A stretch of DNA of 64,000 bases from Psammoneis japonica (Eukaryota). The notes under the pieces were generated by a model. It had not been told where the DNA came from and ran no database searches. It worked only from the letters and a program-made list of their open reading frames with translations. This document shows, piece after piece, positions 10,931-59,770 of this stretch. The stretch spans positions 682,001-746,000 of the forward strand of contig QPGO01000010.1 in assembly GCA_008632985.1 (NCBI GenBank), written 5' to 3'. Made by a program: the position numbers and the translations under genes. Within the stretch, counting starts at the first letter, position 1. Every line of letters starts with the position of its first letter.

Positions 10931-10937
10931 TTGTTGC

Positions 10938-10974
<37 letters not shown>

Positions 10975-10990
10975 GCCGCCGTTGTTGTTG
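10931..10990 (+). repeat. (GTT)n microsatellite
   Basis: Run of ttg/gtt triplets. Confidence 0.95.
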
Positions 10991-12189
10991 GACTTCTTCA
11001 ACTCACTGTTGTTGTGCTTCTTGTGCAGACATGTCTTAATTTGCTGTTGATTCTCAGGGTGAAATTCTTCAACAAACCAATCAGCAACAATGTTGTGGAA
11101 CCTGTTTTGTTGTTTGGTGCTTTTGAGCCCATCTTGACCATTCCTGTGATGAACAAGGTGAAAGAAGGGGTTGGTCTTCTGGGTTGCAGATCTTCTGTGG
11201 TCAACTTGCTGTGCTGTGCAAAAAAAAAACAATTTAAAGTGCCATGGCACCTTTGCCCAGCAATGCTGGCACCAGCTGACCCACACCTCTGGCGTGCCCT
11301 GCAAGACATGCGGCAGAATTTCATGCAATCAGACTGAACTGGCATCTCCCAGAGGAGATGCCCGATGGAAACAGAGCACATTGATGCTTGTCAGTGCTGC
11401 AACAGAGGAGGCAATTTTGCCAAACAGAGTAAAGCACTGATTGGCTGATGGAGACAAAGAAGGTCATTGAGGACCAACGGGTGTGTGGGTGCAAGCAGTT
11501 TGGAGCATTGACATGGCATTTGTTGGTGGTTGTTGCTGTCATGCGTGGAATTTGTGCTGGAGTCCGTGCGGAACATTTTTTGAGTCTGCAGAAAATTGTG
11601 ATGAAGATCAACAAGCATGAGAACCACAAGGAGTCCATGCAAGTCACTTTCCACTCAGTGACATTGCTTGCCATGCTGAAACAAGGGTGTGCCATTGGTT
11701 GAAATGGGCAGAATGGTCTCGGGAGACCCAGCATGGTGTGTTGTCTGAGAAGGGCAACATCAGTGTGAGAAGGTGCACGGAAACACACGCAGGGGCTGCC
11801 AGTGTGCATTTGCCAAAAAAGTGCTCCACTGTGCAAGAGCTTGTGGGCATGTTTGGGGATCCATTGCACTTTGGAGACTTGTCTCATGCCAGACACCCTG
11901 CTTCTTTGAACAACATTTGTTCATTGAATGAACGGGCCTCTTGACTTGAGAAGACACCTTTGGCTGGCCAGAAAAATCAGTTGCTCAAGAGGTGCCATCA
12001 CCAATGGAGTGCCAAACCATTCCTTGGCTTTTCTTGGTGTCTGCTGCAGCCCATTGTGGTTGCACCAATCACACACTTGTGCTTGCACAACAAATGCACT
12101 CTGGAGAGGGGGGCAATGTCAGCCACTGCAAAATTGAAATGGATGAACAGAGGCAGCCTTCAAGGCAGCTCCAAATGACAAACACAGCA

Positions 12190-15170: not shown

Positions 15171-15184
15171 AAAACATGTGCTCC

Positions 15185-15700
15185 CTGGGTTTTGTGCAAA
15201 GACTGTGCCCAGCAACTTTCTGTGCCAAACAGCTCTTTTTGTGAAACCAGCACCATGCCCCACATCTTTCAGGTGAAACCTGTGCCCCACAGCTTTTTGC
15301 ATGGTGCAGCTTCTGAGTGAAACCTCTGCCCCACAGTTTTTTGCACCCCATGGCTTTTTTTGTGAAACCTGCACAGAAAAGCTGGGGGGAGGGGGGGACA
15401 GGTTTCACACAAAAGCTTTAGGATCCAGAAAGCTGTGGGGCATGCAAAAAGCTGGGGGATGCAGGTCTTGCACAAAAGATGTGGGGTGTGGAATGCCACA
15501 GGGAGCACAGAAAGCTGTGGGGTGCAGGTCTCACCCAAAAGATGCAGGGTGCAAAAAGGTGGGGGCACAGAAAGCTGTGGGGTGTGAGTTTTGCACAAAA
15601 GCCATGGGTGCAGAAAGCTGCAGGGCCCAGGATTTGCAAAAAAGCTGTGGTGCACAGAGAAAGCTGCAGGGGGCACATGTCTCTGGAAAATGTTGTTGCC
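15185..15700. repeat. Foldback-like array of short units in inverted orientation around a G-run
   Basis: Left units gtgaaacctgtgccccacagctttttg, right units cagaaagctgtggggtgcaggtctcac, centre gctggggggagggggggacagg (about 15381-15402). Confidence 0.75.
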
Positions 15701-18700
15701 AGAAGCCTGTGCTTTCAACAAATTCCTCTTGTGTGCAATGAGGAAATTGAACAACCTCATCTTGCAGCCAAACACAGCAGCAGCTGCACCATTTGTTGGT
15801 CAAAAATGCACCCAAGAATGAGTTGAGGTTTGAGGCTTCCTTTGCTCAATCTGGTCACCACACTGTTGGCCTGTGGGCACCCTCTCATCTCAAGAGACAT
15901 TGAGAGCAGACCAAGCACACTTCCTGAGAGAATGAGCTGTCACCTGAAACACCCCATTCACAACTCTTGAAAGCTGCCAAATCAAATGTGGCACTGATTG
16001 ATGCTGAGCACACCTGCATCTTTGTGAAGACCCTCAGCAAAGGCACCTCAGAAAAAAAAACTAAAATGTGGTTTTGAGTGCTGTTGCACCTTGACAGCAA
16101 GGCCAGCATCAGGGTTGACCCACACTTCTGGCACACTGATCCATGGCAGAAGACTTTTCAACATCAGCCACCCACCCAAAGCCCCTGTGTGTGTTTCTGT
16201 GTGTGCTCTTGTGCTGACATTGCCCTTCTCAGATGGCATTTTTGCTGGGTCTCTCAAGACCATTCTGGCCATTTCCACCAATGGTGCACTCTTGTTTCAT
16301 CATGTCAAGCAACATTTTTCAGCAGAAAACAACTGGCATTGACTCCTTGCAGTTCACATGTTTGTTGTTCTTTTTCAAAACTTTCTGCACTCCAGTGCAA
16401 ATTCTGCATGCTTCAGCAATCACCACTGATGAATGCTTTGTCAAATCTCTGAGCTGCTTGTGCCCACACCCATCTGTCCTCAATGTCCTTCTTTGTTCTT
16501 GTTGGTCGACCAAAATCCTTCACTCCATTTTTTGGTGAAAGTGCTGCCTCTCTGTTGCAGCACCAATGATCATGGCTGAGTGCAAGTCCTTCTTCAGCGC
16601 CAATTGAAAATTTTCCATTTGCTGCATGCATTGGAATTTCTGCACAAGATCCGGTGTGGTTTCTGCTTGTGAAAAACATTTTTCTGACAACTTGTCACAT
16701 CATCAAGTGCTCCATTTTTCATCTCCCAGTCCTGGACAACCCATCCCTTCCTCACTGGCAAATCAAGATCCCTGCTCTGCACAGCAATCTCTCTGCCACT
16801 GTTGCATTGCTTGGAGGTTTGAAAGTGGCCCTCATTTTGATGTGTCAGCCAATGGCTTGGCATGCTCACAAACCAAGTTCTGGGGGTGATTGTTCTTTGC
16901 CATTGTGGCATGGCAGCCATGTTTCCAGTCCATCTACAAGCAACAAACTCCACAAAGTGTCGCCTCATTGTCCCCAGTTGCCTCGGGCATGTGTCACTGC
17001 AAGGTGGTGCCACCAACCTTGGCTGATCCCACAGAGGCTTCTGCTGCACGACTGGCCCAGTGTTCTGGAAGTGTGGGTCAGCCAATGTCAGCTTGCTGGT
17101 CAGTGGTGTGGCTGGCTGCACTTAAAAAACTGGAAATGTGGTTTTCAACCAGAGTTTTGGGGTCATGATGAAAGTGCAGCTAAAGCAGATCTGGATGAGT
17201 GTCACCTTTTGCAAGACATGCAAAGGGAAACACAGCACCTGCAAGTCCAAAGGCGGTCTTTCACACAAGGCACAGAACAGTTGTTTGAGTTGCAGTTGAG
17301 CGTGTGCAACATTCTAGCAGGGTTTTTGAAGAAAAATGGGTCCCCCACAAAACATCAACTTTGGACCACCAAGACCCAAAAGACTTGCCAGACTTCGCCA
17401 AATGTTTGAATGGAGTGGCATCAACAAGTCACCACCACTTGTTGAAGGCATTTCAAGAGAACTCCAAAATTTCTCACTGAAAAAATCTGAAAGAGCCCAA
17501 TCAAAGATTGAGCTTTTGCAAGCCCCAGCAAAGCAAATGGCATGAAAGGAAAGAGCCAACAAACAAGAAGAAAAAAAGAGATGAAAGGAGATGCTGGGGT
17601 TGCAGTTAAAAAACAAACAAACATGATTGCATTGTCAAACAAAAGGGGAGAAAATCACCAAGGGAAGTCAGCAAGAAACATTTTGTGTGATCCAACTGCA
17701 AACCGGTGCCAGGTGGCCACAGAGAAGAGTGTCTCTAACAATGGAGTGAACATCTCAAAGAGTTGTTGAAAAGGGCAAGATCAAAGCCTTCTTCTTGTTC
17801 CAGATCCAAAAACAGCAAACAACCAAAAAATCAGCAAAGCAGGTCCTTAGAAGCTGTGCCAAACTGTCAGAATTGACCTGCTCCATCAGCTCAAGACTGG
17901 CTCTTCTGCCTGATCAAAGCAAGCTTTTTTGGCTCATTGTCTGAAAAAGGGAGTGTTGGGCCTGAAAAACTTCAAGGGTTGAACAGCACAAGTGCAAGCA
18001 CAAATTGCTGTCTTGTTGAAAGAAGAAAAGGAGGTTTGTTTCTTTCTCCTCAGCAGCTGGTCTCACTGTCAGATGAGCCAAGAGCATGCCATGATGAGCA
18101 AGCAAAGCAGCACACAGGATTTCATTGAGTGCATGCTGGCAAGTGGAGGCTTGTTGCTGCCCTCAAAAACAGTGCCAGCACCAGTTGCACCAAATGACCA
18201 GCTCCAAAGGCTGTCATTCTGTCTGATTTTGCCAAGAAGCACCCAGTGTTGTGAAGCCAGAAATTGCAAAGCAAGTTGCTTGACTGAGGGACGCTGTTGT
18301 GGTGACACATGATCACAGCAGGCACTTTGACAAATCTTGTGCTGTCAAAGAGCTTCCTTTGTGGGGCTCATTTTTTTGACTGCACAATTGCCATGGCTGT
18401 GCATGACAGGGGCTGCACTGCAGCAAAAAAACTGAAGGTGCAGAGACTGACTCATGGCTTTTTGAAATCTCCCAGTCAAAGAACTCAACTTTGTTCACAA
18501 CTGATTTTTTTGTTGCATGCCACATGGCAGGCTCATGACTTGAGATGACCCCCAGCATGCACAATGCTCCAACACCACAAATGGTTTTTAAAAGGGGGTG
18601 CTCAAGAAGTGGCATGATTGTTGGCCCCACCACCTGTCATGCATCATGTGCCAATGAAACTTCCTTCTTGTGCATGTTTTGTGACTTGGTTGGCTTTGTC

Positions 18701-21700
18701 TCCCCCACTTTGTTGGACCATGGACTTTGAGGTTGCTGCAAGCAGTGGCAACTTTTTTTTGGGAACCCAACTCAACAACAGAGCACAGTTCTTAGCAAGT
18801 GGCAAATGTGGGAGATTGGGATGAAAAATTTGTGCTCCATTGTTTCACACAGAGTTTTGCCCAGTGTCAGCAACACTTCAAGCAACATGCTCCTCACCCT
18901 CATCTGGAAAAATGAGAGTGTGAGCTGCAGACTGGGGAGGCATCTTTGGAAGTGAGAGCATCAAAAAAGTCTGTGTGCAAGTGCATTTGGGGGCATTCCC
19001 AGCACAATTTGCATGCTAGAAAACACATGCGTGACCCATCTGGCATTCATCAAAACCCTGAATGCACAGGTTGACAGACTGTTTCAGTGCAAATTCCATG
19101 TGAGTTTCTTTGACAGTCTCACTTCCAAAGACATCACCTGAGATGCTGACATGCCAACACTGGCATCTTGCTTTCAGGCCAAAGCTAAGAAAAAAAGAAG
19201 TGAAAAAACATGAAACAGCTTGAAAAGTTCAATTCAACCCAGGCTTTTGCCCTGAACTCTTTTGCAACTCAGTTGAAAAAAAAACCAGCTCTTTCTTTGA
19301 AGTGTCAAAAAGAGAAAAGAGTGATGTGAGCCAAATGTGCTGCCATGCATTTTGCACATTCATTTTGGCTTTTGCAGGTTGCTGCAAGAGCAAACCAAAG
19401 CTTGCTTTGCACACCACCACATTGTTGTCAAGTTGCTGTGGTGGTCTGTGATTGCTTTTGACAGCTTTCCTCAACTTTGCAGCCATGGAAGCCATGCCAG
19501 CCAACAACACAAAGCAGATGTGGCATGTGTCTTGAAGGAGCTGGTGAGAAAGTGTGCCACAGCTCTTCTGCAACAGACCTTTTGCATGTTTTCAAATGAC
19601 TTTGCTGGTCTTGATGCACCACAGAAAGTTGGTGCATGAGGTCACCAAAGTGGACCTGTGTGACACAGAAATGATCACACCAACTGATTTGGATGCAACA
19701 CATTCAAAGTCACTGTTTTTGCATTGATTGCTTCTAGAGTGGAGAATGTAAAAGGCCCAAATCCACCAGCAGCCACTTGAATTGCCCCACCACAAGCCTG
19801 TTGTGTTTGCACTGGACAAAAAAGAAGCAGCACCCACAGACTGAGAAAAACATGGTGGTCCAAAGGTGTCATTTTCACTGTCATGAGGTGGAAACTTGAT
19901 GCCATCATGGACCACCATCTTCACTCTCTGTGCTGGTTTGTTGTTTGAGGCCTCTCTTTTCTCACAGCATCATTGGCACTGAAGGCACCCAGACATTTAG
20001 TTTTCCATTTTTGAGTGAGACAGGTTGCCAAAACTGCAAAATGAAAAAAAAGAGTTGAGGCTGGCTCCACCTCATTTTCTTTTTCACTTGCTCAGCTCTA
20101 AAAGAGGGTTGGCCTCAAAGCAAGCTGTTGCCAAATTTCTGATTCCATGGTGCACTGAATGCACGTGCAATGACACCGGCTGCTCCTGCGGGCCACAGTG
20201 GGGCCCTCTGCTCTAGCTAGCCAGAGCAAGTGGCAACAGAGAGAGCAGAGAGAGGCAGCTTTGAGGCCCAATGCCGTGCTTCATGTGTGACAACAAAACC
20301 CCCATTTTTGCCAAAATGCATTGCCAACTGACTGATTTCATGCCAACATGAAGTTTCTGAGAACTTGTGGGGTCACAAAAGTGGAGAGGAGTTGCATTGG
20401 ACAAGGGAGCCACACTGAAATTCGTCCCTTGTGCTTTCCTGTGCAATGAAGGTGCTCCGCAAAAAGTCAGTTCCATCTTCCAATGCCCAACGCCAGAAAC
20501 AATGCACACAACCTGTCACATTCTTGCAAGACATCAGTTTGAAGAGCATGAGACCAACAATGCTCACATCTTGTGCATTTTGTGGCTTTAGCAGGCATCA
20601 AAGTCTGGCCAATTCTGCCAAAAATGTCAGCTCCGTGATGCCACCTGTAAAAATTGACCCCCAGTTTTTGACCAAATGCCCACATTGATCAACAAACAGC
20701 ACACAGATGCAAAGTTCAGCACATTTGTGGGGGCCCACTAGAATGGGGGTAAACGTCAGTTGCCAACCAATCACTGAATTTTGACTCTCGCACTGGCCCG
20801 TGTGACAAAGGTGGAAAAGTCAGTTCTGTTTTGAAATGCCAGATGCCATGAACAACAAACACCTGTTGCATTCTTGCAAGACATTCAGTTAAAGAGTGTA
20901 AGACCAACAATGCTCACATCTTGTGCATTTTGTGGCTCTGGCTGGGGTCAAAATCTGGCTGAAACTTCCAAAAAAATCGAGTCGAGCGGGTCACACGGGA
21001 TTCAAGACACGTGACTCACAGTGCAATGAGGTGAAATTGACCCATTCTTGACACCAAGATTGGATGATGACATCATCACAAACCAATTTTATGGCAATGT
21101 TCTACTTTCCATGGCCCTGGTTTGTCTTTGACCTTGTGACAACTGTGCCTGACCTCTTTCATGCTGCAAATGGGCAAAGCAATCCATGAACACCACGTGG
21201 GCGCTCATTTGCAAGCCACGCTGCCTTTTCCATTTTCAGATTTGACGCTTGTGTCTTTGCAATCAACCCAGAGCACATGCAAGCTAGGGAGGAGTTCTGT
21301 TCACTGTCGCTGATCACTCTGCAGAATGACAGCATCAGAACATTTTGTCAACGTTGTTTGACGCTTTTTTCTTGAGCCGTGCACCAACTTCGTTCTTCAT
21401 CATTTTCGCTCTTGTCTGCCCGACTCTCTCCCATTCAAGAACACTTGGCTGAGTGCATTGCAGTTGCTTTGTCAAAGTCTTCAAAAATGTTTGTCTGGTC
21501 AGTGCCATTGATCAAATGGGTTTGATGATGTGATGATGACATTGGATTCGTCATGTGCTCATGCTGGGAAAGACAGTGAGAGTTGGCTGCGGTGGCAAGA
21601 AAGTTGAGTGAGACAACAAGTGGCAAGCCTCAGATGAACTGACAACACTGTTTTGATTTTAAGCATGCTTTCCTTTTTACAAACTTGGGCTTTGACACAG

Positions 21701-25316: not shown

Positions 25317-26129
25317 TGTTGTCTATTTGCTTTGCTGCTGCTGTTTTATGCGCTGCGGAGTTTTTGTGACATGGCGACACGAACGATGCGAACGTCGATG
25401 ATTGGCCTGGGCAGGTTACGAACGGTGTGATGATTCCACATTCTGAATTCTGCTAGATTCTTTCGTCTGTCCTCGTCAGTTATGTGACTCCTCCAACAGC
25501 TTCCAGCAATGCTTGGATCAGCAAACCTTGCAGCTTAATCCTCACCAATCATAACTGCAAAACTGCAGTCTCTCTAGAGCTAGAGGCTGAACCTTTTCTT
25601 GTGCGTCCAAGGATCTCGATCTGTTTCAAAATCCATTTCTTCTCTCATCTTTTGTCGCCCTGGTGCCTGGTGCAGCAGTTGGCAAAAAGCACGGCAGCTT
25701 GGCAGAGGAGGACACCAGCAGCCAGAGAGGTGTCCAAGGTCCTGACTTTTGCACTCAACAGTGTGGGATCTCAATCTGCACCAGCACCAATCTGTTGTCT
25801 TGACTGCAGAGCATGAAAATCATGTTGCAGATCCAGCCCACAGGAGTGCTCTGTGGAGACAGTCAGCGCATTTAGCCCCCCCCCCCCCCTCCAGCACCCA
25901 AGTTCTTGCTCAGAAACACTCTGGCAAATGTTTGCACTCTCTCAACTCTCAATCTCAGCTGTGCATTGGCTCCACTTTTCTCAACTTTTGTTGTCAAATG
26001 CACCCCATGAAAATGTGCGGCTGGCTTTCAAATTTGTTGAGATTCTTTTCGACCAGAGCACCTCACCAAACAGCTGGCATGTGCCTCTCGTCCACACTCA
26101 GGGATGACAGCTGGTGGGCCCTTGTCTTC

Positions 26130-26570
26130 CTTTGTGCTCACAAGCCACCCTCTTGGCATGCATGCACTGCAAGGATCCCTTTTCAGGTTGCCAGCTGCAC
26201 CACACGCCAGGCCAGCATGACTGCCACACTGCATGAGATGCTCTCCAGCCAAGTGGGGTTGACACTTGGCTCCTGAGCTTGAACAGCAGCAAGAAATTGC
26301 TCCAAATGAGAGCTGGTCATGCCCACAAGGTTTGCAATTTTGTCAATCACTTGATGGGTTGCAGCAAGGTGTGAGCAGCATTTGCCCTCACACTGCCGTG
26401 CACTGGCAGGTGATTGACAGGCAAGATTTTCAGGAACAGAGTCTTCAGGATTTTCAGCCTTCTCATCCAGTGACATGGGTTGCTTGCACCCCATTTGATG
26501 CCCCATCTCAACAAAGTGATCACACTCTTCATCAGCAAGGAAGCTGCAAAGGCTTGCAACCTGAGAAGGC
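26130..26570 (-). pseudogene. Decayed prolyl 4-hydroxylase-like (2OG-Fe dioxygenase) gene fragment, interrupted by the Gypsy insertion; continues at about 31751-31830
   Basis: SFLADEECDHFVEMGHQMGC...QCEGKCC...HQVIDKIANLVGMTSSHLEQ resembles the P4H motif NFLSDEECD...GY.RS...WC...CY...I.NL.G....E.LQ. Across the LTR the sequence reads CKVTVHSWP. Confidence 0.55.
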
Positions 26571-26574
26571 CCAC

Positions 26575-26950
26575 TGCACTGTGCTCGAAGAACGAGTGTA
26601 AACGAAAGTATAACGAAGTTCAAAAGGTGAAAATTATGAGAATCATTTCTGCGCAATCATTTTGGGTTTCTCCGAACGGGTTCTCAATGGCCTAAACCTT
26701 TTGCGCTGCTCCTGCAGACAAAAGGCCTTTCGGAGAATGTGATCGTGACGACAGATTGTCCGGGTGCGATTGACATTGACATGAGATGTCAACATCATCG
26801 TACGATCGCATTTGCGATTCTCGACATCCAATCACTTCTGTGTGACTGATCTGTACTTCATGCGAACCCACGATTGACGTGCGATTGAAACACACTTTTG
26901 TTGATGTACAGACACACATGCATGACACGCACATGACAACGCATGTTGCA
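26575..26950 (-). repeat. 3' LTR (376 bp)
   Basis: Direct repeat of 31368-31746. Confidence 0.95.
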
Positions 26951-26962
26951 TTCGCCTCCCTA
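26951..26962 (-). other. Polypurine tract of the Gypsy element
   Basis: Minus strand reads tagggaggcgaa immediately before the 3' LTR. Confidence 0.8.
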
Positions 26963-26974
26963 ATTGCACATTAG

Positions 26975-29900
26975 AGTCAGTCGTTAAACGGCGTTGTTCG
27001 ACGAATGTTGACAGTGTCAACAACGTCACCGCGTTTGATCTGTGCTGTGCCATTGGCATGTGCCGTTGTCATTGCGCACGGTCCAACATGGGGCTGTTCT
27101 AATTTTTGCGAGTCTTTCTCGAGCAGTGTCTTTTCTCCTGCTCTGCACGTGCAAGGAGTGCGTCGAGCACTCTCTCGAGCGTTGTTTTTATTTGTGATTT
27201 CTTGTTTTGCTGCTGGATTGGTTTCCAGTCCGCGACATGTTGGACGTTAAATGTCATGTCTCTGTTGAAGACTGGTTGTCCTGGTGCAGCTTGCGCAGTG
27301 GCATGACATGCAGAACGCGCCGCAAATGCTGCTGCTGACAGCATTCCAGCGAAAGGATCCTCAGCATCTAGAGGTGCATGTTGCAAATCAAATGTACGGA
27401 GCATGTTCCCCAGTGCTTGATGTGCGCGTTCAATGACTGCGTTTGCTTGTGGATTTCGTGCAGTTGTGGGCTTGACTTTAATGCCATGATCATCTTGCAC
27501 CATTTCTCTAAATTGGTGTCCGATGAACTCACTTCCACGGTCACATGTAATTAACGATGGCCAAGGACATCTACTTGGCCATGTTCGTTCTAGTGGTCCA
27601 GCTACAGTTGTGGACTCCTTATTTGGGATTTCCACAACTTCAAACCATCCGGTTGCTGGATCGATCATAGTTAAACATTTCAGGACTAGGGGTTTTTTCT
27701 TTCCCTTACGACGTATTTTGTATGGCCCAATAAGGTCCACACATAGTCGTTCCCATGGTACGGATTCTGCGCACTTAGGAGGTAAATGTCCATATTTCTT
27801 GTGTTTCTTTTTGAATTTTTGGCACGTCTCACATCTCGACACGTATTTTCGTATGTCTTCACGTAAGGTGGACCACCATAGGTGTTGTGAGATTGTTTCT
27901 TCTGTTCGATTTATGCCAGGGTGAAGAAGGTACGTATGATACCAATCTATCACTGCCTTTTGTAACGTCCTCGGGACGACAATTTTATCCTTATGACATA
28001 TGAGCAACCGGTCTCGCTCGCCTCCACGAAAAGTCTTCGTATGAAACGTCTTATTTGACAATTGGGAGAGAATGTCTTTATCCCGTTTTTGTTCATAATC
28101 AAGAACTTTGTAATTTAACGGAAAGACATTGTCGTAGGATTTTGGTAGGACCTTTTCAGCTAACTCTTCTGTGCTGAGGGTTTCCATAGGTTCTATTTTT
28201 TTCATAGTAAGTCGGCTAATCGCGTCTGCGACAATATTTGCCTTGCCCTCAAGGTATATTATTTTGGGACTGTATTCCTCTATTATTAGACGCCAACGCA
28301 TGACTCTGTCCGTTGTGAAATTTTTGTGTGTGAGATTTTTGTGATCCGTATATATATTTATCTGTTGGCCAAACAGTATATTTCGGAACTCTTTTAACGT
28401 CTCCACTATGGACAATAGCTCTTTTTCCGTTGTAGTATAACGCGTCTGCGCTCCATTCAGCTTGCGGCTGTAGAAGGCAATTGGTCGGTTTTTCTGAGTA
28501 ATAACCGCCCCCAATTGAGAATTACTAGCATCGGTATATATCTCAAAGGGTATATTAAAATTCGGGTATGATAATAGTATATCTTTAGAGATGATGCGCT
28601 TCATATTTTCGAAGGCTTTTTGTTCTGTTTCGGTCCATTGCCACTTTACTTGGGTAGAAGTGAGTTTGGCTAAAGGAGCTAAAACATGAGATCGTCGAGG
28701 CCACATGTCTCGATAGTAGTTGATCACACCGATAAAGCGTCGCAATTCCTTGCGAGTTTTAGGAGTTGCGATCGCGTGAATCGCTTCCACTTTTTTTGGA
28801 ATCGGACTGATGCCCTTGCGGGTGATATGAAAGCCTAGATAGTCTACTTCGGGTTTAGCGAAAAAGGACTTCTCGGCGTTGACTTTCAATCCGGCTTGTT
28901 CTAGGCGTAAGAACACCGTTTCAAGCTTCTTGAGGTGGTCTTGAAAATCACTTTTTGCAAGACACAATGTGTCGTCAATGTAAGTTCTGACGAACTCCAG
29001 ACCTGCCATGAGCTCACTCATGTGCTCTTGGAAAATATCTGGAGCTCCACAGATCCCCATCGGGAGTCTACAGTACTCACATTTGCCCCAAGGCATGACG
29101 ATCGTGCACAAGCGACGTGCATGCGGCGTCAATTCGACATGACAGCACCCCATGTTTAAATCTAGGGACGTTGCATGCATGAAGCCTTCAAGCTTCTGTA
29201 GCATATCCTGAATATTGGGCAGAGGAAACGGAGTGCGAATTAACCTCTTATTTAGCTCACGAAAGTCGGATAAGAACCGAACTCTACCATTTTTCTTGGG
29301 TTGAACAAAGGTTGGAGCCGCCCATTCAGAACAATTTATTTTTCTTAAGACTTTCAACTTGCATGGTCTTTCAACCTCTTTACGAGCAGTCGCCTCCAAG
29401 GCTTGTGGTACGGGAAATGGTTTGGCATGATACGGACTCACGCCCGATTTCAACTTTAAATCCACCGGTTTCCCGGTCCATTTGCCCAGAGAACCATCGA
29501 AAAGGTTTTCAAATCTTTTTAAGAGGAAGTTCAGCTGCTTCTGCTCTTCAGGGGTTAGATGAGTAGCTGCTGCGGTCACATTATTGAGGTTTGCAGCGTG
29601 ATGGTCTGAGTCAAGGATCCGATTGACCCTGTCATTAAGACTGATCACTGCATGAGATTCCTCAATGTGATCGGCAATCAACTTAAAAACATCGGCATCG
29701 AAGAGTGCATCAACATTCTTCATAGGAGTAGTTGCATCTTCCCACTTAATTTCTTCATTCGAGAAGTCCAATGTTGTCCCAAGACTTGACATTAAGTCGC
29801 GTCCCATGATCACATCATAACGACTCGAAGAAGAAGGGGAGTTGTCAACATGTGCCGTTGTTTCAATCATCTTGTGTTTGTCAAATTCGGGTGAGGAGAA

Positions 29901-30176
29901 TTGGATCTTACATCGACTGTCAGTCGTGAAGAGCCCTCCTTTGGTTTCCCAGAGTTTGGTGGCGGATGCTTTTGTTCTGAGTTTCCGCGTGAATTTGCGC
30001 AAAATTATGGTTGACGATGTTCCGCCATCGAGGAGAACGCGTAGAGGCTCATTTTTCGCCTTGCCCAATGAAGCACTCATGCAGGCGACGACCACTGGAC
30101 TAGCATGAATTACTTTGGCCCTTTTTCTGGGCTTCCTAATGTCCAGTAGAGCGCAAGACTCCTCTTGCGGTGCAAG
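26975..30176 (-). CDS. pol: Gypsy pol (protease, RT, RNase H, integrase); frameshift near 27210 in the integrase C-terminus; partly hypermutated
   Basis: LLDGG protease; SDFRELN and YIDD (RT); YTDAS and YTDHKNL (RNase H); HPG..CETC, VDLIGP, DRGSEF, NAVIERAH (IN). The tail KLEQPHVGPC...NGT...VNIRRTTPF lies in a shifted frame. Confidence 0.93.
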
Positions 30177-31331
30177 TCATTCCTCAGAATCACTGCGCGT
30201 CATTTTTTCAAACTGACAATTTTCCTCGTCAAGGGCATCAGAATCACAATCTTTGCTCTTGTGTTTTTTGTCATTGTTCGAAGAACTCGCTTTGAGCATT
30301 TTTTGAACTGCTTGGATCGCCATAGCATTCAACTCTTCTTTGCGAGCGGCGTTGTCATTATCGCGACGAGACCACGTGCGATTGCCATTTGAACGGCGCC
30401 GTTTTGGGTCGGGTTCATAGTTCCCACGGCGTTCTTTCGCAAGTCTTTTGATCGACCAGCACTTGTCCGTGTTGTGAGTGGATTTCTCGCACAAAATGCA
30501 CCACTTCTCGGACTGAGATTTTTCGGTGCCATGTTGGTGACCATTTTTGGAACCACGTTGGGAACCACTCTTGGCTTTTGATGCAGTGCCGCCACTGCCA
30601 TCAGCCTTGGCATGAATGCCATCAAATGTGTCTTCTGCGACCTCCAGGCGCTCCAAGAACTCAACCAACTCGTCACAGGTATGCTTCAAAATTTCGAAAC
30701 CCTGGACGGTCGACTGACGCTGCCACTTTCGAGGTGCAAGGTTGAAGAGGATGTCCTTGAGCTCGTCGTCCTCGATCTTCTGTTCCTTCCCAAAGGGAGG
30801 ATAGAACTTGAGGTCTTCGTTGACTTCCTGGACCCAAGCAGCAATTTCGCGTACTTTCATGGACTCCGGCTTCTTGAGATCACGACGCAAATAACGTTTC
30901 TGCACCGAAAGTGCGTTCTTGGGAAACACATGCCTCGTGAGATGTTGCAGGCATTTCTCGAAGCTTCCTTCCGCAGATTCGTCTTCAAGGTTCGCTGCCG
31001 CATTCTCGAAAGCACGTAGGGCGTCTCCTTGGAGTAACACACGCATGAGACGAAACTCATCAGATTGCTTCCTGACACTCTGGCCCACTGGAAGTTGATC
31101 GTAGCTCTTGAGAAATTCGATGAACTTGGGGACACCTTGTTTCTTGCAGTGCTCAACATTGATGGTGTAGGTACGGCTATCCTTCTTCTCGGGATGAAAA
31201 CGTTGCTCCATCTTGAGGCACTGACTCGGTTTGAGGCTCTTCGGCTCGGAGTTCGATTCCAGCGGTTGAGGGACGATTTTCTCCTGCCTTGACGAAGTTT
31301 TGGCGTTGGTTGCATGAGGTGAAAGCTTCAT
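30177..31331 (-). CDS. gag: Gypsy gag with a CCHC zinc knuckle
   Basis: QKRYLRRDLKKP and ELVEFLERLE; CILCEKSTHNTDKC matches CX2CX4HX4C. ATG at 31331. Confidence 0.9.
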   Translation of the reverse strand: MKLSPHATNAKTSSRQEKIVPQPLESNSEPKSLKPSQCLKMEQRFHPEKKDSRTYTINVEHCKKQGVPKFIEFLKSYDQLPVGQSVRKQSDEFRLMRVLLQGDALRAFENAAANLEDESAEGSFEKCLQHLTRHVFPKNALSVQKRYLRRDLKKPESMKVREIAAWVQEVNEDLKFYPPFGKEQKIEDDELKDILFNLAPRKWQRQSTVQGFEILKHTCDELVEFLERLEVAEDTFDGIHAKADGSGGTASKAKSGSQRGSKNGHQHGTEKSQSEKWCILCEKSTHNTDKCWSIKRLAKERRGNYEPDPKRRRSNGNRTWSRRDNDNAARKEELNAMAIQAVQKMLKASSSNNDKKHKSKDCDSDALDEENCQFEKMTRSDSEE

Positions 31332-31367
31332 CTTGAACTTATTACCTTCTGTGGTGTGTATACACAA

Positions 31368-31746
31368 TGCACCATGCTCGAAGAACGAGTGTAAACGAAA
31401 GTATAACGAAGTTCAAAAGGTGAAAATTATGAGAATTATTTCTGCGCAATCATTTTGGGTTTCTCCGAACGGGTTCTCAATGGCCTAAACCTTTTGCACT
31501 GCTCCTACAGACAAAAGGCCTTTCGGAGAATATGATCGTGACGACAGATTGTCCGGATACGATTGACATTGACACACAAGATGTCAACATCATCGTACGA
31601 TCGCATTTGCGATTCTCGACATCCAATCACTTCTGTGTGACTGATCTGTGCTTCGTACGAACCCACGATTGACGTACGATTGAAATGTACTTTTATTTAA
31701 CATATAGATGTGCACATGTAATACGTACATGACAACGCACATTGCA
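31368..31746 (-). repeat. 5' LTR (379 bp)
   Basis: Direct repeat of 26575-26950. Confidence 0.95.
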
Positions 31747-33673
31747 CCACACCAATGAGATCAGCAGCATGGTCACCATCAGAGTCATTGTGTGGACCAG
31801 GCCATGAATGAACTGTCACTTTGCAGCCATTGTTCCTGTCTCACTGGTCCTTCAGTGCACACATGTTCGAGGCCTCCTCCGGCATTGGGCATCTGATTGG
31901 GCTTGGGGTTTTGGGGGGAGAATTTTTCAACAAAAGGGGGAGTCCCCCAGATGAAAAAAGTGGGGGCCCAGATGTTGGAAAGCACCAAGAATGGACAATC
32001 AAATGAACCTAAAAAGCTCCAACTGCAAGTGCCTGGACTGACCTGTCATTGCATGCAATGAATGGAGACAGTCTTGTCTTGTCCAAAACAGAGTTGTGGG
32101 AATGCCAGCAAAAGTCCCAAGATGGTGCCCCACCCTCATCTTTGACCAGTCTTGGTCACTTGAGCTTCATCACCTGCCAATGGGGATGATTGCACATGGG
32201 CGTGGGAGGAGGAGCTGCAGCAGGTGGAAGTGGTGGGTTGTCACCGGACGACTCATCTGCAACAGGCTCATTTTCATCTTCCGCCATCACATCTTTTTTG
32301 TTTTGTCTCAGTGTGCTGCGCGATGCATTGCCACAAGTGCCATGCTCACCACTTGCTGTCAGATGGTGCACCATGCACTGTGTGCAATGTGCTCACAACC
32401 CATGTCTCCAGACAAAATGTGCTGCCCCCCCCCCCCCCNCCGCTCCCCCCCAAAACCCCAAGCCTGCATCCAATGCACAGACCCCACATCTCCTCACATG
32501 CTCAGCTGGCTGGCTCACATGTCAGCAATGTGACAAGTTCATCAAGTTTGTTGTCTTCACCACATTTGAGCAACAGCTCTAAGCTGCCCAGCTTTGGCAA
32601 AGCTCATCTTGATTGCTGGTGCAAGGTTTGCCCACAAGAGCACATTTTCCCAACCCCACAAGAGACTTCCCCTCTGCCCCACGAGTCAGCTGCCCCTCCA
32701 TCATCCATCATTGCAGTGGTGCCATCAATTGTGGCTTCATCATCACCAAGAGATTGGGGCCAACCAGCGCCAAACATGACTTCCTCAAAGTCTGTGGGGG
32801 CACGCACCAAATGTGCAAGCCGCCCCTTGCACACAACTTTGTGCCTTGGGGGGCACAAAGTTGAGCGGAGGCTGTGTTTTTGCTGTCAGCCAATGTCACC
32901 CTCAAACAATGTGCTGCTGCACTGTCTCCAGTGTGTGTCTTTGCAGTCTCTCTTTGTGCTTTGCAGCTGTTGTTGATCTGTTTGCAGCATTGCACGTCAT
33001 CAGATGGTCAGCACGCGGCACACTTGAGATGGCCACAATCATGGCGGCACCCTTCTCAGCCAGCCATTCATGCTGTCACTGGCTTTCATGGAGATCACCC
33101 CAAAAACAATTCCTCAGAAACAAGATCTGTCACTTCTTGCAGAGGCTTGTCTTGGTCAACTTCCTTGCACTCGGCGGTGCAACCATGTGTGCACACAAGA
33201 CTCTTGGTGCATCGCTGGCTGCCCTTTTCTCCTCTTCATTTCCTTCTCAGGAACACTGAAGTCTCAGCCATGCACCGGCATGTCAACAGTTGGAAGAAGA
33301 GCATTGCAGCAGCGAGGTGATTTGCTGTGAAAGCTGCGGCGTCATTGCGTCAAAAGATGCGAAGCCGAGAAAATGGGCACTTCGAACTTTTGTTGAAATC
33401 GCATCGTCGCTCGGATGGAGGGATTCCTTCAGTCCGTACCGTATGTACGTCACATGGATTCCGGCCGCGATGCCGCCGCGATGCCGAGGCGCGCTGCTCA
33501 CGCAATTTTTGATCGATCCGCAATGAGTTTTGCGGCGCGCTCCACCTCCATTCAATTCGTGTGTTGTGGTTATTCTCGACAACATCTTACGACACAGAGG
33601 CGATACGCAAGGCAGCCTTGCGGCAAAGATTAGATTTGAGGCAGTAAATTCAGACTGGAGAAGAATCTATTCC

Positions 33674-34464: not shown

Positions 34465-34957
34465 TCACAACAATGTTGTTAGCATTGTTTGCGAAGTAGC
34501 ACTAGTTTCCACTATGCCAGAAGAGTCTAACTAGTTGCTAATAACGTCACGAATGTTTTTGCAACACCAACACGACTTCCTGGTTTCTCGGTGGACGACA
34601 CAGATTCCTTCATACTTTGGCTCGTGAAATTGACAGTCCTGTTCTAAAGGATATATCACAGTATTAGGACCAACTCTATTATAGGTAGGTACCGTATGCA
34701 TTTTTTATTTTACGGTCAGACCTCGCCGAGGACCACAACACGCAGAATAACCGAAGTTCGTGACTGTTCGATTCTGTTCCCGCAGATGAACATCGCCGAT
34801 CGCCGAGCGAGCTCCAACCAGCGGACGGCGACATGATGCCGACGCTGCCGACACATCATTTTGCTATTGTACGGTTGGAAACTGAACTTGGTCGAAGTCG
34901 GCTCTTTAGCATACTTCTCTTACTTCTCCTTCCAGGTATTGTCTCTGGAGGGTCTCA

Positions 34958-35794
34958 ATGCTTGCTACAGTCTTTCTGAAATCACCCCGTACTTTGCTGT
35001 TTCTGCTCTTAACTGCGGCTGCAATGGTCAATGTGTCGAATTCACTCTCGGCGAACGCTGACAAAGCTACCGCTGATCGCTTGGCGACTTGGGATCAGAG
35101 ATGGAGCAACGATAGAACTGGTTGGCATATAGAAGATGTCCACAAGCATCTTCAACAACACGGTGGCAGCATCATTCCCAATATCGACCGTGAAGAAAAG
35201 GAAACTTCTGAAGGAGTGAGAGTGTTTGTACCGCTCTGTGGAAAGACGGTTGACATGGCTTTCTTGGCTCAGAACAGTGGCGTCAGCGAAGTTGTTGGCA
35301 TTGATGGTATTCAAAAAGCACTCGACGAGTTCATTGCACTCAACCCTTCGCTCAACATCAAAGAATCTCAAGAATGTAATGATGACGGGTTCAGTCGCTT
35401 CACCGGAGACAAAATCACGCTACTCCGAGGAGACTTCTTCCTCATGGACAAGGCATCGGTTGAAAAGTTTGACGCCATTTGGGATCGGGCTTCTATTGTT
35501 GCGATTGAACCCGATTTGCGGGAGGACTATGTGCGAATCTTGGGCCATCTACTCAAACCCGGCGGCACTCTGCTAGTTTCAACTTTAGATAAGAGGGAGT
35601 TACCTCCCGAGGCCAGGGCCGGTGGACCTCCGTATTCTGTGCCCGAGTCGGAAATTCGTAGGCTTTACGAAGCACTGGAATGGGTTGAGTCCGTCACCCC
35701 TGTTTCCGATAATGAAGCTGATGAGAAGCTGGGAATTGGACCCAGCGTTCGCGAGGTTGCCTTTGTGATCAAAACAAAGAAGAGCGTTCCGTGA
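34958..35794 (+). CDS. TPMT: Thiopurine S-methyltransferase (TPMT)-family SAM methyltransferase with a hydrophobic N-terminal extension
   Basis: WDQRW...GWH, RVFVPLCGKTVDMAFLA, VVGID, GDFF, FDAIWDRASIVAI, GPPYSV. Confidence 0.93.
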   Translation: MLATVFLKSPRTLLFLLLTAAAMVNVSNSLSANADKATADRLATWDQRWSNDRTGWHIEDVHKHLQQHGGSIIPNIDREEKETSEGVRVFVPLCGKTVDMAFLAQNSGVSEVVGIDGIQKALDEFIALNPSLNIKESQECNDDGFSRFTGDKITLLRGDFFLMDKASVEKFDAIWDRASIVAIEPDLREDYVRILGHLLKPGGTLLVSTLDKRELPPEARAGGPPYSVPESEIRRLYEALEWVESVTPVSDNEADEKLGIGPSVREVAFVIKTKKSVP

Positions 35795-38700
35795 AATGTT
35801 AAGACAGTTCTTAGGCAATTTAAGATTAAAGAGATTTTTATCACCGCTGTTCCCATCAACTATTCGTCGCAAATAATGATGGTCGGGCCAAAGACGAGAG
35901 TGAGAAAGTCGCACCAAAATGCAAGGTCACACGCGACCCGGTTCCGACGACAAAACTCGACTCATGATGGTCCGAATGAATTGGAATGGAGAAGGGCTTG
36001 AAGAGCTGGTGGAAGAAGACGAAGACAGTGAACGGCCAGTCGTAAGTTAAATCAGGACAACAAGTGTGAACTTGTATGGGCGGGAATGGCTTCGAAACAG
36101 ATGTTCTCGACTTACACCTTTCAATCCTGTGAAACTGCCGGTATGGCATGACGCATGCTACAGGTAGAAACCAAGAGTCGTCGTCAACGTTCAAAGTTAG
36201 GGAATGACGAACAAGATGAAGATGATGAAATCGTCATGATGGAGGAATGAAAGGCATTATGAGATGATGGCTGCCATGCGCTGACGCTATTCATCATCAG
36301 CACAGCAAAATCAAAGTCTCGTCGGTACCTAGTAGCGAATAGGATCCTTTCCTTCTCTGAGTAGGCCACACTGTAGCGACAAAGTATAATTGGACTAGAG
36401 AGAGGTTTTCGGTTTTCTAGTTCCCTTTCCCGACGTATTGTATGTAAGGTTAGGCCCTGCTACGTCGGGTGGTGGCGGCACGAAAAGTAGGGGCCCTATG
36501 CAACGACATCGCAAGCGCTACGACCGTCATCGCAGTCCATTGACGTACGTACGGAATGTCTTACACGCAAACAAGGATTACTATCTGGTGCTGTTAGTCT
36601 TTCTACTTCTATGTTGTAAAGGTTCAAAGTGTGTTTCAAATAGTTGAAACACGCCAACATCAAAAGTTGATGTAGAAATCGGTTGCGTAGGGTGACGTTG
36701 CCTCAAGAGCTCCATCAAAAGATGGCGCTCAAGCTTTTGCGTATCTTCAGAGAGAAAAATGTCACTCAAAAAAATGTAGAAGGGGGGACGTACTACGGAG
36801 ACAACAAGAAAACTTGCGAGTCAACCGCGTTCTAAATCAACACTCCCTGCGAGTGAAGACTTACCGCATCATGTCTTTGATACGACAGAACCCCAAACCT
36901 GTGTTCCGTCAACAGCATGATCTGCTCGGCGAGCTTTTGCTGCTTCACAGACGAATGCTGCTGCCTGTTTCAACAGCCGTGACCTGACGGGTCAAGTGAA
37001 CAGGCAACTTCCTGCGCTCAAAGACACGAGAGTGACATGGACTCAAGGCCGGAGAGACGCATTCGATTTGCCCCGACCTCTGGACTTAACTGGCAACACC
37101 TGCGCCGCCTAGAGACAACACTTCGTGCAAGCAAAACATGTTGTGGAACACCAAACAAGAGAAAGCAATTAGAGCCAGAGGAAGGGCGAGCCATCCTTGG
37201 GTATCGCTGCATTCCGGCTTGGCGAACAACAAACACATCGTGCCGCAAACGACGAGTTGTGATCGAAAGAGTGAGAGATTTTGTTTGTGTCGTGACCGTT
37301 GCTAAATATCTCATTCACTGTCACTTTTGTGAACCTTAGTAGAGATAATACTATCACTTCGTATGTAGAAATGTATTTTGAACTTGGTGCTGACAAAATT
37401 ATTACTAATTCCTACGTGGACCTTACGGTTGCCGTACAAAACGACAAAAAAACTGCTGCCGCCGATGACGGACGTCGTCGCCGTTGTCGAGGTCCGTCCG
37501 ACCGTCCGAGCACCATCAGAATGACGATAACTAACAGCGGCATGCGCACACGGCATGACGATGACATTGGATGTATTGTCGTAAAGCTCTGGATTGCATC
37601 ATCACAGCAGTCGATAGGATGCATTGGCGTGTTGTTTGTATCCATTATCAATTGACATTCCCTCCGAAGAAAACATGAAAAACGCAATCTTTTCCGTGGT
37701 GCGTTGAGTGTTGTTGAGCTTCTCAGAAAAAAGCACTTGATTGCAGCAAAGTGTGCTTTGCTCTGGTTCATCCTTCTGATCCTGTGCTGCTTTTACCTGT
37801 TTTTTAGTCGGCTTGCAATGTGGTTTGTGCTGACATCTGGAGAAGGCAAATGCTCCAGCTTGTTGGGTCTCTGGCACTTTGTTGTTCAGTTGTCATTGTT
37901 GGTTCACGCCTTGTGACTCACATTGTCAACAGTGCAACACTGCACTTCACATGGATGCAACTCACACGACCATGATTTGTGGAGTGTTGGGGTTCCCATC
38001 TGCGACATGATTGTTGGATGCACTAATTTCGTGATCGTTTGTCTGAACGCTTGTTGCTCTTGCATTCACTGGTTCTTGTCGCTGGTGTGAGTGACAAGTT
38101 TGCATCACATTTTTTAGTGTCAAACAAGCTCAAGGAGGATGGAAAGCTCAAGTCATTCCAGGACATGTGGAGATACAAAGATGCCATCATGTGGGGTGCC
38201 AAGATGGTGTCTGCTTGCTTGGAACTCTTCTTTGTGCTCATCAATTGAACCGTCTTTAGCAGAATCATGGCAATGCTTTGTTTTCGGGGCGGGCGTCGCA
38301 CGGCGAAAGAGTTGGCCACACCATGGCCTCACACTCTGCTGGTGCCAGAAGTGGAATGGTGACCAAACCAACTCAACCTGGTTTGTGTCCAATTGTTGGA
38401 TGCACTTCCTTTTGCACTGTTCCTGATCACAAGTGCAAAAACAAGCAATGCAACAAGTGCGTCCGCTGCTTGTGTGCGCAACATTGCAGCTTGACAAGTG
38501 CAGAGAGTGAGCTGAGCATGTGTTGTTCAATTGCGTGCAAAGGCAGTGACCAGTTGTTTTACATTTAATTGGTGCAGTGTCATTGTTGCATTTTGCTTTT
38601 ACAACGGGGTCACAAGAAGCACTGCCAGTGGTCGATTTGGTCTCCTTTTGGCGCCGACTGCCAATGTTGATTTGTCACTGGCAAAGGGGGGGAACATGGT

Positions 38701-40488: not shown

Positions 40489-40809
40489 AGAGCATGGATC
40501 AGGATTTTCCCTGATGCTGTGAGCATTTGTGTGCAAATGCCAAATTTCGTTAAACAATGCTGTGTGAAATTTTGGATGACATCTAAATTGCATCACCATG
40601 CCATCACATCTACACTCTTCCCTTGCACAGGGGTGACTTCATCACAGCAACGTGGGAGGCTTCATGCTTTGTGTCAATCAATGAAGCAATGGGTCTTGCA
40701 ATCGAGTGAGTCAATCTTACAGTGCTGCCACCGGTGACATCTTCGTTGTCAAGGTCCGAGCTCTGCAGAATTCTCCATGATGACATCGTCATGTGTGCCG
40801 GCCAGTCAT

Positions 40810-42457
40810 GTTGCAATGCTGGAAACAGGACCGTGAATTGTCGTGGGCATTGACAGCATTGGCTTCTTGTCACAATGACCATGTGGGGACCATCCATTTG
40901 TTTGTTCTCGGGGAATGCTTGCCCCTCCAACCACAAGAACGATGTCTGCAAGATCGTGGTGGGTGGCAGACATTGAAACATTCATGTCCACATCACATGG
41001 GTCTGAATCAGGGGCTGCCAGAACCACTGTGCAATTTCCAATTTTTTCCTCTGAAATCTTTTGCTCCTTTTCAGCCCTGCAGTTGTGTCTTTTGCAATGT
41101 CTTTTCAATGGTTTTGAACACAGCATTTTGAATTGTCACAAGTGAATCCATGGTGGCTGCAGTGCCGGATGCACTTGCTGTCAAATGTCTTGCCAAGAGG
41201 ACTGACACATCCACATTTTGTGATTTGCTGCCCTGAAATGGTCCATCAATTTCCAACAGGGTTTGGCAGACATGCTTGCATGAGAGATCCTTGAGGGACC
41301 TGCTGAGACATTGCCTGAGTCACAGCCTTGATTTCAGCATGTGCGGCCAACACCTCAGGGGTGTCTGCACTGGTGGCTTCTCTTCTTTGTGCTTGTTTTT
41401 CTTGTTGGCCACACACCTCAAGACTCCCTTGAGGCCTGTCAAAAATTGAAATGTCATGTCCTTCACAGTGTCGCCTGTGAAGGTGTTCTTAGCATGTGGA
41501 TGCCCTGCATGGGCTGAAACAACCATTCAAAGTGAAACCCATGCACTGATGAGAAACAAGCCCTGTTTGAACAGAGTGCTCAAAAGACAAGCCAGCACCC
41601 ATGCAACCAGTGTGCTGAACAGCCAACTTGTCACCCAAAACAATGGAAGCTCTCCATCTGACAACAACAACTCTCAACAACTCTTGACTTCTCCCTTTTT
41701 GGCTGACTCAAACAACTGTCTCACCTCTGACTGCAGCACTTGATGCCAGCTCAACAATGTTTTTGATGATGCTCATGTTTGACACTTCCAAAGAAAGATG
41801 AGAGGCTGGGGTCACTCTGTTTGATTGAGATGCTTGTCAACAATGGATGGCATTGCAGCTTGCTGTTGCAACACTGCATTGGACAAAGGTGGAAAAAGGT
41901 TTCCACACAAGTTGCAGCTCAGAACTTGAGTGGCACGACAGTTTGGACTGTTGTCATGCTCCTTCATTTCTTCCAACAAGCAAAGTGAAACCAACAAGTT
42001 GGCTTGAACCTTGTCAGGGTTGACAGGTTTCAACCAATCAGTCTCTGAGTCTGACCACAAAAAGCCCATGATGCAAATGGTTTCATTGCCTGAAGATTCG
42101 ATGCACCCACCAGTTTGGGCTGTTGCAGCCCATGATTTCTTTTGGAGAACCCACCAGCGCACTGCTGTCACAAGGTCTTGTGCTGCCTTTGGCTGCACTG
42201 AGCAAAAAGAATGACAATCAAGAAACGTGTGCAAGCTGCAGCACTTGAGTCTCTCATTCTGCACAGCTTTGGCTCAAGAACCCTGTTGCCTCTGCCAATG
42301 GGTTCAATGACGTCTGTTTTGGATGACAGCAACTCTTCTGCTTGATGTGTCCAACTTGTGTTTGTGAGCTTTCAAACCTTTCCAGCTGTGAAAGATCAAT
42401 TTCCAACCATGTTCTTTTTCTTGTTTTCACCCATCATGGGCAAGTTTTTCTGCATGA
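40810..42457. repeat. ~1.65-kb decayed interspersed repeat, copy 1 (copy 2 at about 57890-59528)
   Basis: Collinear similarity throughout; for example caggaccgtgaattgtcgtgggcattgacagcattggcttctt and gggttgacaggtttcaaccaatcagtctctgagtctgaccacaaaaagcccatg occur in both. Confidence 0.92.
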
Positions 42458-56800: not shown

Positions 56801-56805
56801 ACTGC

Positions 56806-57842: not shown

Positions 57843-57889
57843 CTCAGAAAAGTTGAGCAGCTTTTGCACTTGATCTGAGAATGCATGGC

Positions 57890-59528: not shown

Positions 59529-59534
59529 AATGTC

Positions 59535-59699: not shown

Positions 59700-59770
59700 C
59701 AACCAGTGTGCTCAACAGCCAACTTGTCACCCAAAACAATGGCAGCTCTCCATTTGACAACAACAACTCT

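Follow-up and report, generated by a model that had tools for sequence, protein, structure and literature searches.

Strand-symmetric loss of TpA, ahead of CpG, in a Ty3/gypsy retrotransposon and in silent domains of a 64-kb window of the diatom Psammoneis japonica

The element and its flanks

The sequence analysed here, referred to as the window, is a stretch of 64,000 nucleotides from the diatom Psammoneis japonica (assembly GCA_008632985.1, contig QPGO01000010.1, positions 682,001 to 746,000 of the forward strand); all coordinates given below are positions within it. At 26575-31746 it carries a retrotransposon bounded by long terminal repeats (LTRs), which have diverged from one another mainly by transitions changing TpA to TpG or to CpA. 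The same dinucleotide is almost absent from extended domains of the window, where CpG has been largely lost as well.

The interval 26575-31746 is a single Ty3/gypsy (Metaviridae-type) LTR retrotransposon, lying on the minus strand. Its parts and the DNA on either side of it are listed below. Contents of TpA are expressed as observed/expected ratios (o/e), and sites are called one-sided when a dinucleotide is kept in one LTR and changed in the other.

25582..26570: left flank of the element, eroded before insertion; 8 TA and 14 CG over 25400-26570, where 70.8 and 74.3 would be expected
26571..26574: target-site duplication CCAC, left copy
26575..26950, minus strand: left LTR, the 3' LTR of the element, 376 bp, with tgcac...ttgca ends; TpA o/e 0.28
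26855..26945: fast-changing end of the left LTR, with its partner at 31650-31741
26951..26965, minus strand: polypurine-tract-like run, purine-rich on the element strand and directly upstream of the 3' LTR, recognised by reading the sequence
27099..30176, minus strand: pol frame, 1025 amino acids (aa)
30177..31412, minus strand: gag-like frame, 411 aa, without a Pfam match
31368..31746, minus strand: right LTR, the 5' LTR of the element, 379 bp; TpA o/e 0.62, with TA retained at 13 of the 14 one-sided sites
31747..31750: target-site duplication CCAC, right copy
31751..33300: right flank of the element, eroded; 2 TA and 22 CG, where 88.6 and 104 would be expected

The ends of the element were matched by find_repeats as 26572-26781/31365-31574 and 26779-26902/31574-31697, and the limits of the LTRs were set by a MAFFT alignment. 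Within the pol product, Pfam locates RVT_1 at residues 293-451, RT_RNaseH at 540-635, Integrase_H2C2 at 734-790 and rve at 809-909; the resulting order, reverse transcriptase, RNase H, integrase zinc-binding domain and integrase core, is that of Ty3/gypsy elements. Comparison of the pol protein with viral contigs found no relative. The gag-like and pol sequences are in one frame, split by a lone TGA at 30177-30179 (minus strand), which may reflect either programmed read-through or mutation.

Both LTRs have TG..CA termini. Together with the matching 4-bp duplication CCAC, they point to one insertion, and therefore to two LTRs that were alike at integration, their identity at that moment being established knowledge of reverse transcription. 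The two flanks show that the element sits in a stretch that was eroded already before it was inserted. A single N is found at 32439, within the right flank.

Differences between the two LTRs

The MAFFT alignment of the LTR pair has 379 columns, three of which are gap columns, and contains 35 substitutions, all of them transitions. Pyrimidine-purine (YpR) steps occupy 208 of the 379 columns and hold 34 of the 35 substitutions (binomial P 2e-8), leaving a single one outside. When 35 transitions were placed at random in 20,000 trials, the number falling within YpR steps averaged 19.3, with a maximum of 30. Classified by step, the pair shows TA in both LTRs at 7 sites and CG in both at 23, TA facing TG or CA at 14, TG facing CA at 9, and CG facing CA at 2; TA-type sites thus account for 32 of the 35 substitutions.

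A preliminary description of this DNA had proposed that the LTRs diverged mainly by TA becoming TG in one copy and CA in the other, with most CpG shared intact, and these counts bear it out on both points. The strings that it quoted are all present, the TG/CA pairs at 26580-81 against 31373-74 and at 26944-45 against 31740-41, together with the one-sided examples at positions 26644, 26714, 26739, 26881 and 26855.

Changes are densest in the fast-changing end. Columns 280-379 of the alignment include one site with TA in both LTRs, 10 TA one-sided sites, 7 sites with TG facing CA, 6 sites with CG in both and one CG one-sided site, so that CpG is intact in both LTRs at 6 of its 7 sites there. A BLAST alignment of this variable end differs from that of MAFFT, giving 5 sites with TG facing CA, 13 TA one-sided sites and 4 transversions; the number of reciprocal TG/CA sites is accordingly 5 to 9, depending on the alignment. 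Such sites can in principle arise from TA or from CG. Since 23 CpG are intact and 2 are one-sided, the loss of CpG per copy is about 0.04, and only about 0.02 reciprocal sites would be expected to derive from CpG; the 9 observed are therefore attributed to TA.

At one-sided sites the left LTR has CA in 5 cases and TG in 8, and both strands have thus been struck within one LTR, as the preliminary description had maintained. TA was lost from the left LTR at 13 of these sites and from the right LTR at one (two-sided binomial P about 0.002). The bases following the affected A are C in 20 of 46 cases, T in 14 of 33, G in 8 of 26 and A in 8 of 33, and no convincing preference for the base 3' of that A is seen; strand-coordinated clustering was not found by a runs test either (P 0.44-0.72). 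The differences lie between the LTRs and go in both directions within one of them, which agrees with the earlier view that they do not stem from editing of RNA or at the reverse transcription stage: the changes took place after integration, independently from site to site.

The LTRs differ at 35 of 376 aligned bases overall, as compared with 1 of 171 outside YpR steps. Judged from these sequences, an insertion date based on the LTRs would be inflated about 16-fold here, in line with the inflation that had been anticipated. From the same counts, each LTR can be roughly calculated to have lost TpA at about 1.0 per site and CpG at 0.04 per site, other transitions amounting to about 0.003 per base; the corresponding divergence ratio over non-YpR transitions, likewise a rough figure from the LTR counts, is about 170-fold per base.

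Direction of change in gene duplicates

The direction of the changes was read from duplicates that are not of retroelement origin, listed below.

34837..35873, plus strand: intact TPMT-like gene (open reading frame (ORF) 34910-35791, 294 aa; Pfam E 1.9e-43), used as the unmutated reference for direction
56794..57841, plus strand: decayed, frameshifted TPMT copy
59536..59699, plus strand: third, partial TPMT copy, source of the three-way sites
40809..42457, plus strand: duplicate of 57891-59529, both copies being eroded

From the TPMT-like gene to its decayed copy, 20 sites changed from CG to CA, 20 from CG to TG, 16 from TA to CA and 14 from TA to TG, for a total of 70 sites. Changes in the opposite direction were seen at 2 sites, and none of the 72 polarised changes leads from CA or TG to TA. 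The pair also has 14 CG and 2 TA in common, and differs by 25 other transitions and 18 transversions; the older copy thus retains 2 of 32 TA and 14 of 56 CG. Where the partial copy can be added to the comparison, the gene, the decayed copy and the partial copy read TA/CA/TG at 4 sites and CG/CA/TG at 3. Such three-way sites require TA or CG as the ancestral state if each copy is to have undergone a single step.

In the second pair, 40809-42457 and 57891-59529, TG faces CA at 42 sites, CG is one-sided at 19 and TA is one-sided at none. With 42 reciprocal sites and no TA left, the two copies must have decayed independently, in place and after the duplication. As the old silent DNA is nearly devoid of TA, a process that makes TA, repeat-induced point mutation (RIP) for instance, is ruled out. 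The direction from TA to TG or CA that had been proposed for the LTRs is thus the one found in the duplicates, at the three-way sites and in the old silent DNA.

An internal control is provided by a tandem duplication at 8865-9158 (142 bp, about 95% identity), located in fully eroded DNA. Its copies differ by 4 non-YpR transitions and 2 transversions, and by no YpR change: with neither TA nor CG left, divergence looks ordinary.

Eroded domains and spared regions

Besides the flanks of the element, two large domains of the window are eroded.

7200..20400: large eroded domain; 36 TA and 61 CG, where 922 and 729 would be expected
50100..59400: eroded domain; 33 TA and 155 CG, where 603 and 559 would be expected; it contains the decayed TPMT copies and the decayed duplicate of 40809-42457

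In 7200-20400 the o/e is 0.04 for TpA and 0.08 for CpG, 1.78 for CA and 1.92 for TG, and the other 12 dinucleotides range from 0.76 to 1.29. TA and CG are thus at 4-8% of expectation in the oldest domain, and TpA o/e is 0.04-0.05 in the eroded domains. Degenerate repeats with a 20-nt spacing are found at 12256-15046, inside the largest of them.

Domain borders are sharp, within about 100-250 bp. At the right border of the domain that holds the element, the first TA after 32580 comes at 33437, beyond which TA is dense, as CG is from about 33313. Both dinucleotides persist in the non-coding spacers that adjoin genes, with 37 TA against 43.2 expected and 41 CG against 37.5 in 23289-23942, 61 TA against 76.2 and 52 CG against 49.7 in 33914-34909, and 54 TA against 85 and 68 CG against 63 in 35792-36982. 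In host genes, TA and CG are frequent at the boundary between codon positions 3 and 1. Erosion is therefore confined to domains, sparing genes, the spacers close to them and synonymous positions. This confinement, the sparing of genes and the erosion of CpG in older domains go beyond what the preliminary description had reported.

An intermediate condition is seen at 59418-63999, where TpA amounts to 39 against 273 expected (o/e 0.14) and CpG to 227 against 295 (o/e 0.77). The region consists of two long open frames, 59418-62738 (1107 aa) and 62791-63999 (403 aa, reaching the end of the window), for which Pfam, protein atlas and PDB sequence searches returned no family. It may represent a gene or an insert that was silenced not long ago and whose erosion is still at an early stage. 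In the LTRs TA is lost with CG almost intact, here with CG near normal, while in the old domains both are gone: the loss of TpA runs ahead of that of CpG.

The composition of the eroded DNA affects its stop codons. The 13.2 kb of 7200-20400 contain 20 TAA, 12 TAG and 281 TGA, and because TAA and TAG are so scarce, dozens of spurious ORFs of 100-370 aa occur in the eroded domains, in all six frames. When 86 ORFs from these domains were scanned against Pfam, only 2 matched, both to TPMT and both from the pseudogene; the scan of these 86 ORFs does not show a foreign origin for the large domains.

Variation within the element family

A public DNA run contains a fraction of 0.64 of the exact 31-letter words sampled from 26000-32300; two other public runs (X2 and X3) showed next to no match. 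The contigs built from the run reach 315 kb, at a depth of about 32-73, and contig pieces matching the element at a likeness of at least 80% were taken as members of its family. There are 5,025 such pieces, which makes the family an abundant one.

The pieces vary from the window at 1,091 places, with 248 A>G, 250 T>C, 211 C>T and 220 G>A changes, for a total of 929 transition places, as compared with 146 transversion places. Alternatives between CA and TG are also seen in the variable end of the LTR. Each transition and its complement are nearly equally represented, and the strong strand asymmetry that, according to the preliminary description, would have spoken against its reading is absent at the family level. 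Forty of the 1,091 places were listed individually: among these, none coincides with any of the 35 LTR differences, 4 are adjacent pairs of TG facing CA, and 15 are transitions outside YpR steps.

Proposed mechanism and alternative explanations

The spectrum of the changes, their direction, their symmetry between strands, their restriction to domains and the lead of TpA over CpG are features of the window itself. We hold it to be very probable that the conversion of TpA to TpG or CpA acts on chromosomal DNA, on both strands and in targeted silent domains, with a DNA adenine deaminase as the most likely agent. After insertion, A:T>G:C transitions would occur at TpA, yielding TpG or CpA according to the strand struck. 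A slower decay of CpG to TpG or CpA would go on alongside, and the two together would remove both self-complementary YpR steps. By analogy with what has been proposed for Bigelowiella natans, the deaminase would most likely act on A preceded by T in silenced chromatin; the loss of CpG would most likely proceed, to judge from the sequence changes, through deamination of 5-methylcytosine (5mC).

Several observations weigh against this scheme. The LTR sites have no outgroup, and their direction is taken from elsewhere in the window. The 13:1 imbalance between the LTRs is not predicted by a uniform process, as both are of the same age; it suggests patchy or episodic action. The whole scheme, the targeting of domains included, rests on one 64-kb window and one summary of family variation, and the agent is inferred, neither an enzyme nor a base modification nor a chromatin mark having been seen. 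As the public run comes with no record of its platform, the check on base-calling accuracy is an indirect one. Among the 40 listed variant places, moreover, there are 9 at which TA in the window stands against TG or CA in the depth-weighted majority of the family, and none with the reverse. At these 9 places one state accounts for more than 80% of the depth, and we interpret them as inherited differences between source lineages, not as independent decay; they do not settle the direction, and the majority rule alone would make TA the derived state.

The same 9 places would fit a cascade made of C>T changes only, RIP-like or due to 5mC deamination, leading from CG through TG or CA to TA, so that TA would be the end product and the right LTR the more mutated of the two. 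Cytosine deamination would suffice for it, and TG facing CA can come from CG. Such a cascade, however, predicts a build-up of TA, and the old silent DNA has a TpA o/e of 0.04; none of the 72 polarised changes between gene and pseudogene goes from CA or TG to TA; and it needs 23 LTR sites hit in both copies, 23 in neither and 2 in one, where about 24 would be expected in one. We give it next to no chance. An origin before or at integration has hardly a better one: retroelement editing is well known (cf. the abstract of PMC4866542), and could take the form of RNA editing by ADAR or of APOBEC-type editing of the cDNA. Changes of this kind would be copied to both LTRs and biased to one strand, but the left LTR has 5 CA and 8 TG, A>G and T>C are balanced in the family (248 against 250), and the same spectrum is found in duplicates that are not retroelements. 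Recombination between two diverged copies, the other form that a pre-integration origin could take, is opposed by the matching 4-bp target duplication, which argues for one intact insertion.

It is also very unlikely that the pattern is an artefact of assembly or base calling, in which symmetric modifications of TA and CG in silent chromatin would be miscalled, strand by strand, as TG or CA. This would mimic strand symmetry, restriction to domains and TG-CA differences, and evidence from within the window does not discriminate against it. The length and depth of the public-run contigs, on the other hand, imply accurate reads, and these contigs differ from the window by the same excess of transitions (929 against 146 transversion places) and carry CA/TG alternatives in the variable LTR end; the decayed TPMT copy, furthermore, has 18 transversions and a frameshift in addition to its YpR changes. 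Somewhat less remote, though still improbable, is a mutation bias at TpA and CpG that acts throughout the genome, TA and CG in genes being preserved by nothing but selection, with neither targeting nor defence involved. The eroded stretches have no recognisable domains in their 86 ORFs save the TPMT pseudogene, and could be plain neutral DNA. Against such a bias, the non-coding spacers next to genes (33914-34909 and 35792-36982) are uneroded, host genes have many TA and CG where codon position 3 meets position 1, and the borders are sharp.

A last alternative leaves the process and its targeting unchanged and replaces the chemistry, with a TET/JBP-type enzyme oxidising thymine at TpA to 5-hydroxymethyluracil (5hmU) or 5-formyluracil (5fU), which would mispair with G. 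TpA being self-complementary, a T>C change on one strand is an A>G change on its complement, and the resulting letters are those of adenine deamination. In dinoflagellates 5hmU, and in kinetoplastid telomeres base J, sit at T followed by A. We know, however, of no organism rich in 5hmU or base J that loses TpA, and the lesion seems to be weakly mutagenic. The fastest decay, in the TA-dense end of the LTR, fits an enzyme that needs briefly unpaired DNA, a weak link that would favour deamination. On balance, oxidation of thymine is unlikely as the source of the changes, and a DNA adenine deaminase is the agent that we prefer.

Comparison with known systems

In the literature on TpA loss, in diatoms or elsewhere, only one relevant report was found, a 2026 preprint on B. 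natans (bioRxiv 10.64898/2026.01.13.699255). In mutation-accumulation lines of that organism, the mutation rate of two viral regions integrated into the genome is about 6e-7 per site per generation, locally about 1000 times the baseline, with activity in some lines only; of the 231 mutations in these inserts, 230 are A>G or T>C, every one of which falls on TpA. The genome contains TpA-poor, CpA+TpG-rich clusters, reverse-transcriptase and DDE domains are enriched among its TpA-poor coding sequences, and an ADAT2-like deaminase is proposed as a candidate agent. The terms 'CpG', 'LTR', 'retrotransposon' and 'diatom' do not occur in this text; the supplements may bear on CpG and on other species.

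So far as that text allows, the likeness is close. In both cases A:T>G:C changes hit TpA in chromosomal DNA that is foreign or repeated in origin (32 of the 35 LTR substitutions here are at TA-type sites), giving TpG or CpA by strand and TpA-poor, CpA+TpG-rich clusters; both strands are affected (here 16 TA>CA and 14 TA>TG), and confined regions are struck with the rest spared, in our case within 64 kb. The cases differ, again as far as that text goes, in the lineage, a diatom here, and in the depth of the loss, TpA o/e being 0.04 over 13 kb, as compared with a Rho of 0.45 in the viral region of B. natans. The substrates here are an LTR pair, gene duplicates and unannotatable domains, and CpG is eroded too. 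Rates come from mutation-accumulation lines there, and are inferred from divergence here.

Fungal RIP changes C to T mainly at CpA, thereby creating TpA. Like RIP, the process seen here is made of transitions only, is dinucleotide-specific, strikes both strands of chromosomal DNA and leads to the decay of repeats and of duplicated genes there. Unlike RIP, it destroys TpA (o/e 0.04-0.05), and no change from CA or TG to TA is found against the gene reference.

The CpG component resembles decay driven by 5mC, in that CG>TG and CG>CA are equal in number (20 each), are restricted to silent domains and bring CpG o/e to 0.08 in 7200-20400. This known process explains the CpG half only: in the young LTRs 23 CpG are intact and 2 changed, while TpA is heavily hit. 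Another diatom, Phaeodactylum tricornutum, carries 5mC only, according to a passage of PMC12695648; by analogy, this would argue weakly against a route through N6-methyladenine.

Deaminase-type transitions in LTR elements are also produced by APOBEC and ADAR editing. ADAR favours U before the edited A, a preference that the B. natans preprint cites as well. Both types of editing have cDNA or RNA as their substrate and favour one strand, and the two LTRs alike inherit the result; the changes described here are post-integration, symmetric and present outside retroelements as well.

Implications

If the process holds genome-wide, a second, distant algal lineage, and one belonging to an ecologically dominant group, would have TpA-directed hypermutation of silent DNA, and an observation made in a single species and reported in a preprint would become a candidate general defence. 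A bolder proposal, which we offer tentatively and judge somewhat less likely than its opposite, is that the diatom, a stramenopile, runs the TpA-specific DNA editing defence of B. natans, a rhizarian alga, at a far greater scale. A chromatin-targeted editor would rewrite TA in every silenced insert, duplicate and spacer, CpG methylation decay would follow, and TAA and TAG stops as well as TATA-type motifs would be erased; DNA adenine editing would then be an ancient and widespread arm of genome immunity in SAR (stramenopile, alveolate and rhizarian) eukaryotes, and a fast clock of silencing age.

There would be practical consequences for the analysis of this genome. Insertion dates based on LTRs would be inflated, convergent changes to TG and CA would fragment repeat families, and the long spurious ORFs of eroded DNA can mislead gene callers. 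The loss of TpA first and of CpG later would provide a two-speed clock for the duration of silencing, and the sharp borders of the domains would provide a map of silent chromatin from sequence only, which makes the search for the enzyme and for the targeting signal directly testable.

Other features of the window

One ORF in a gene island (44001-44957, 317 aa) was considered as a deaminase and rejected: it matches a CDD/CDA-like Pfam family below threshold (E 0.13; 12.4 bits, the cut-off being 27.1), its translation showed neither an HxE nor a PCxxC motif, and the match was taken as due to chance. When an exact 21-mer of the LTR was compared with metagenome contigs, the lone match (L001) was likewise attributed to chance, as that contig has a GC content of 31% and is otherwise unlike the window.

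For the TPMT-like frame and that of proteasome beta-3, the best homologues with a named source all come from diatoms, namely Cyclophora, Proboscia, Mayamaea, Nitzschia, Attheya, Seminavis, Synedra, Fragilaria and Cylindrotheca, with noted identities of 43-59%. The TPMT-like gene (34910-35791) is adjoined by a frame with a bacterial-type globin domain (33527-33913), and one Nitzschia protein fuses both domains.

At the left end of the window, a frame of 1715 aa (3-5147) is open beyond the end of the sequence; it encodes PT-type disordered repeats, with periodicities of 108, 120 and 192 nt and a GC content of 58%. A TA-poor stretch contains an inverted repeat, 38894-39186 and 40198-40488, whose arms are 238-293 nt long, 84-85% identical and about 1 kb apart. 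The arms differ by CG facing CA or TG at 10 sites and by TG facing CA at 4, and the whole (38894-40488) may be a decayed DNA transposon.

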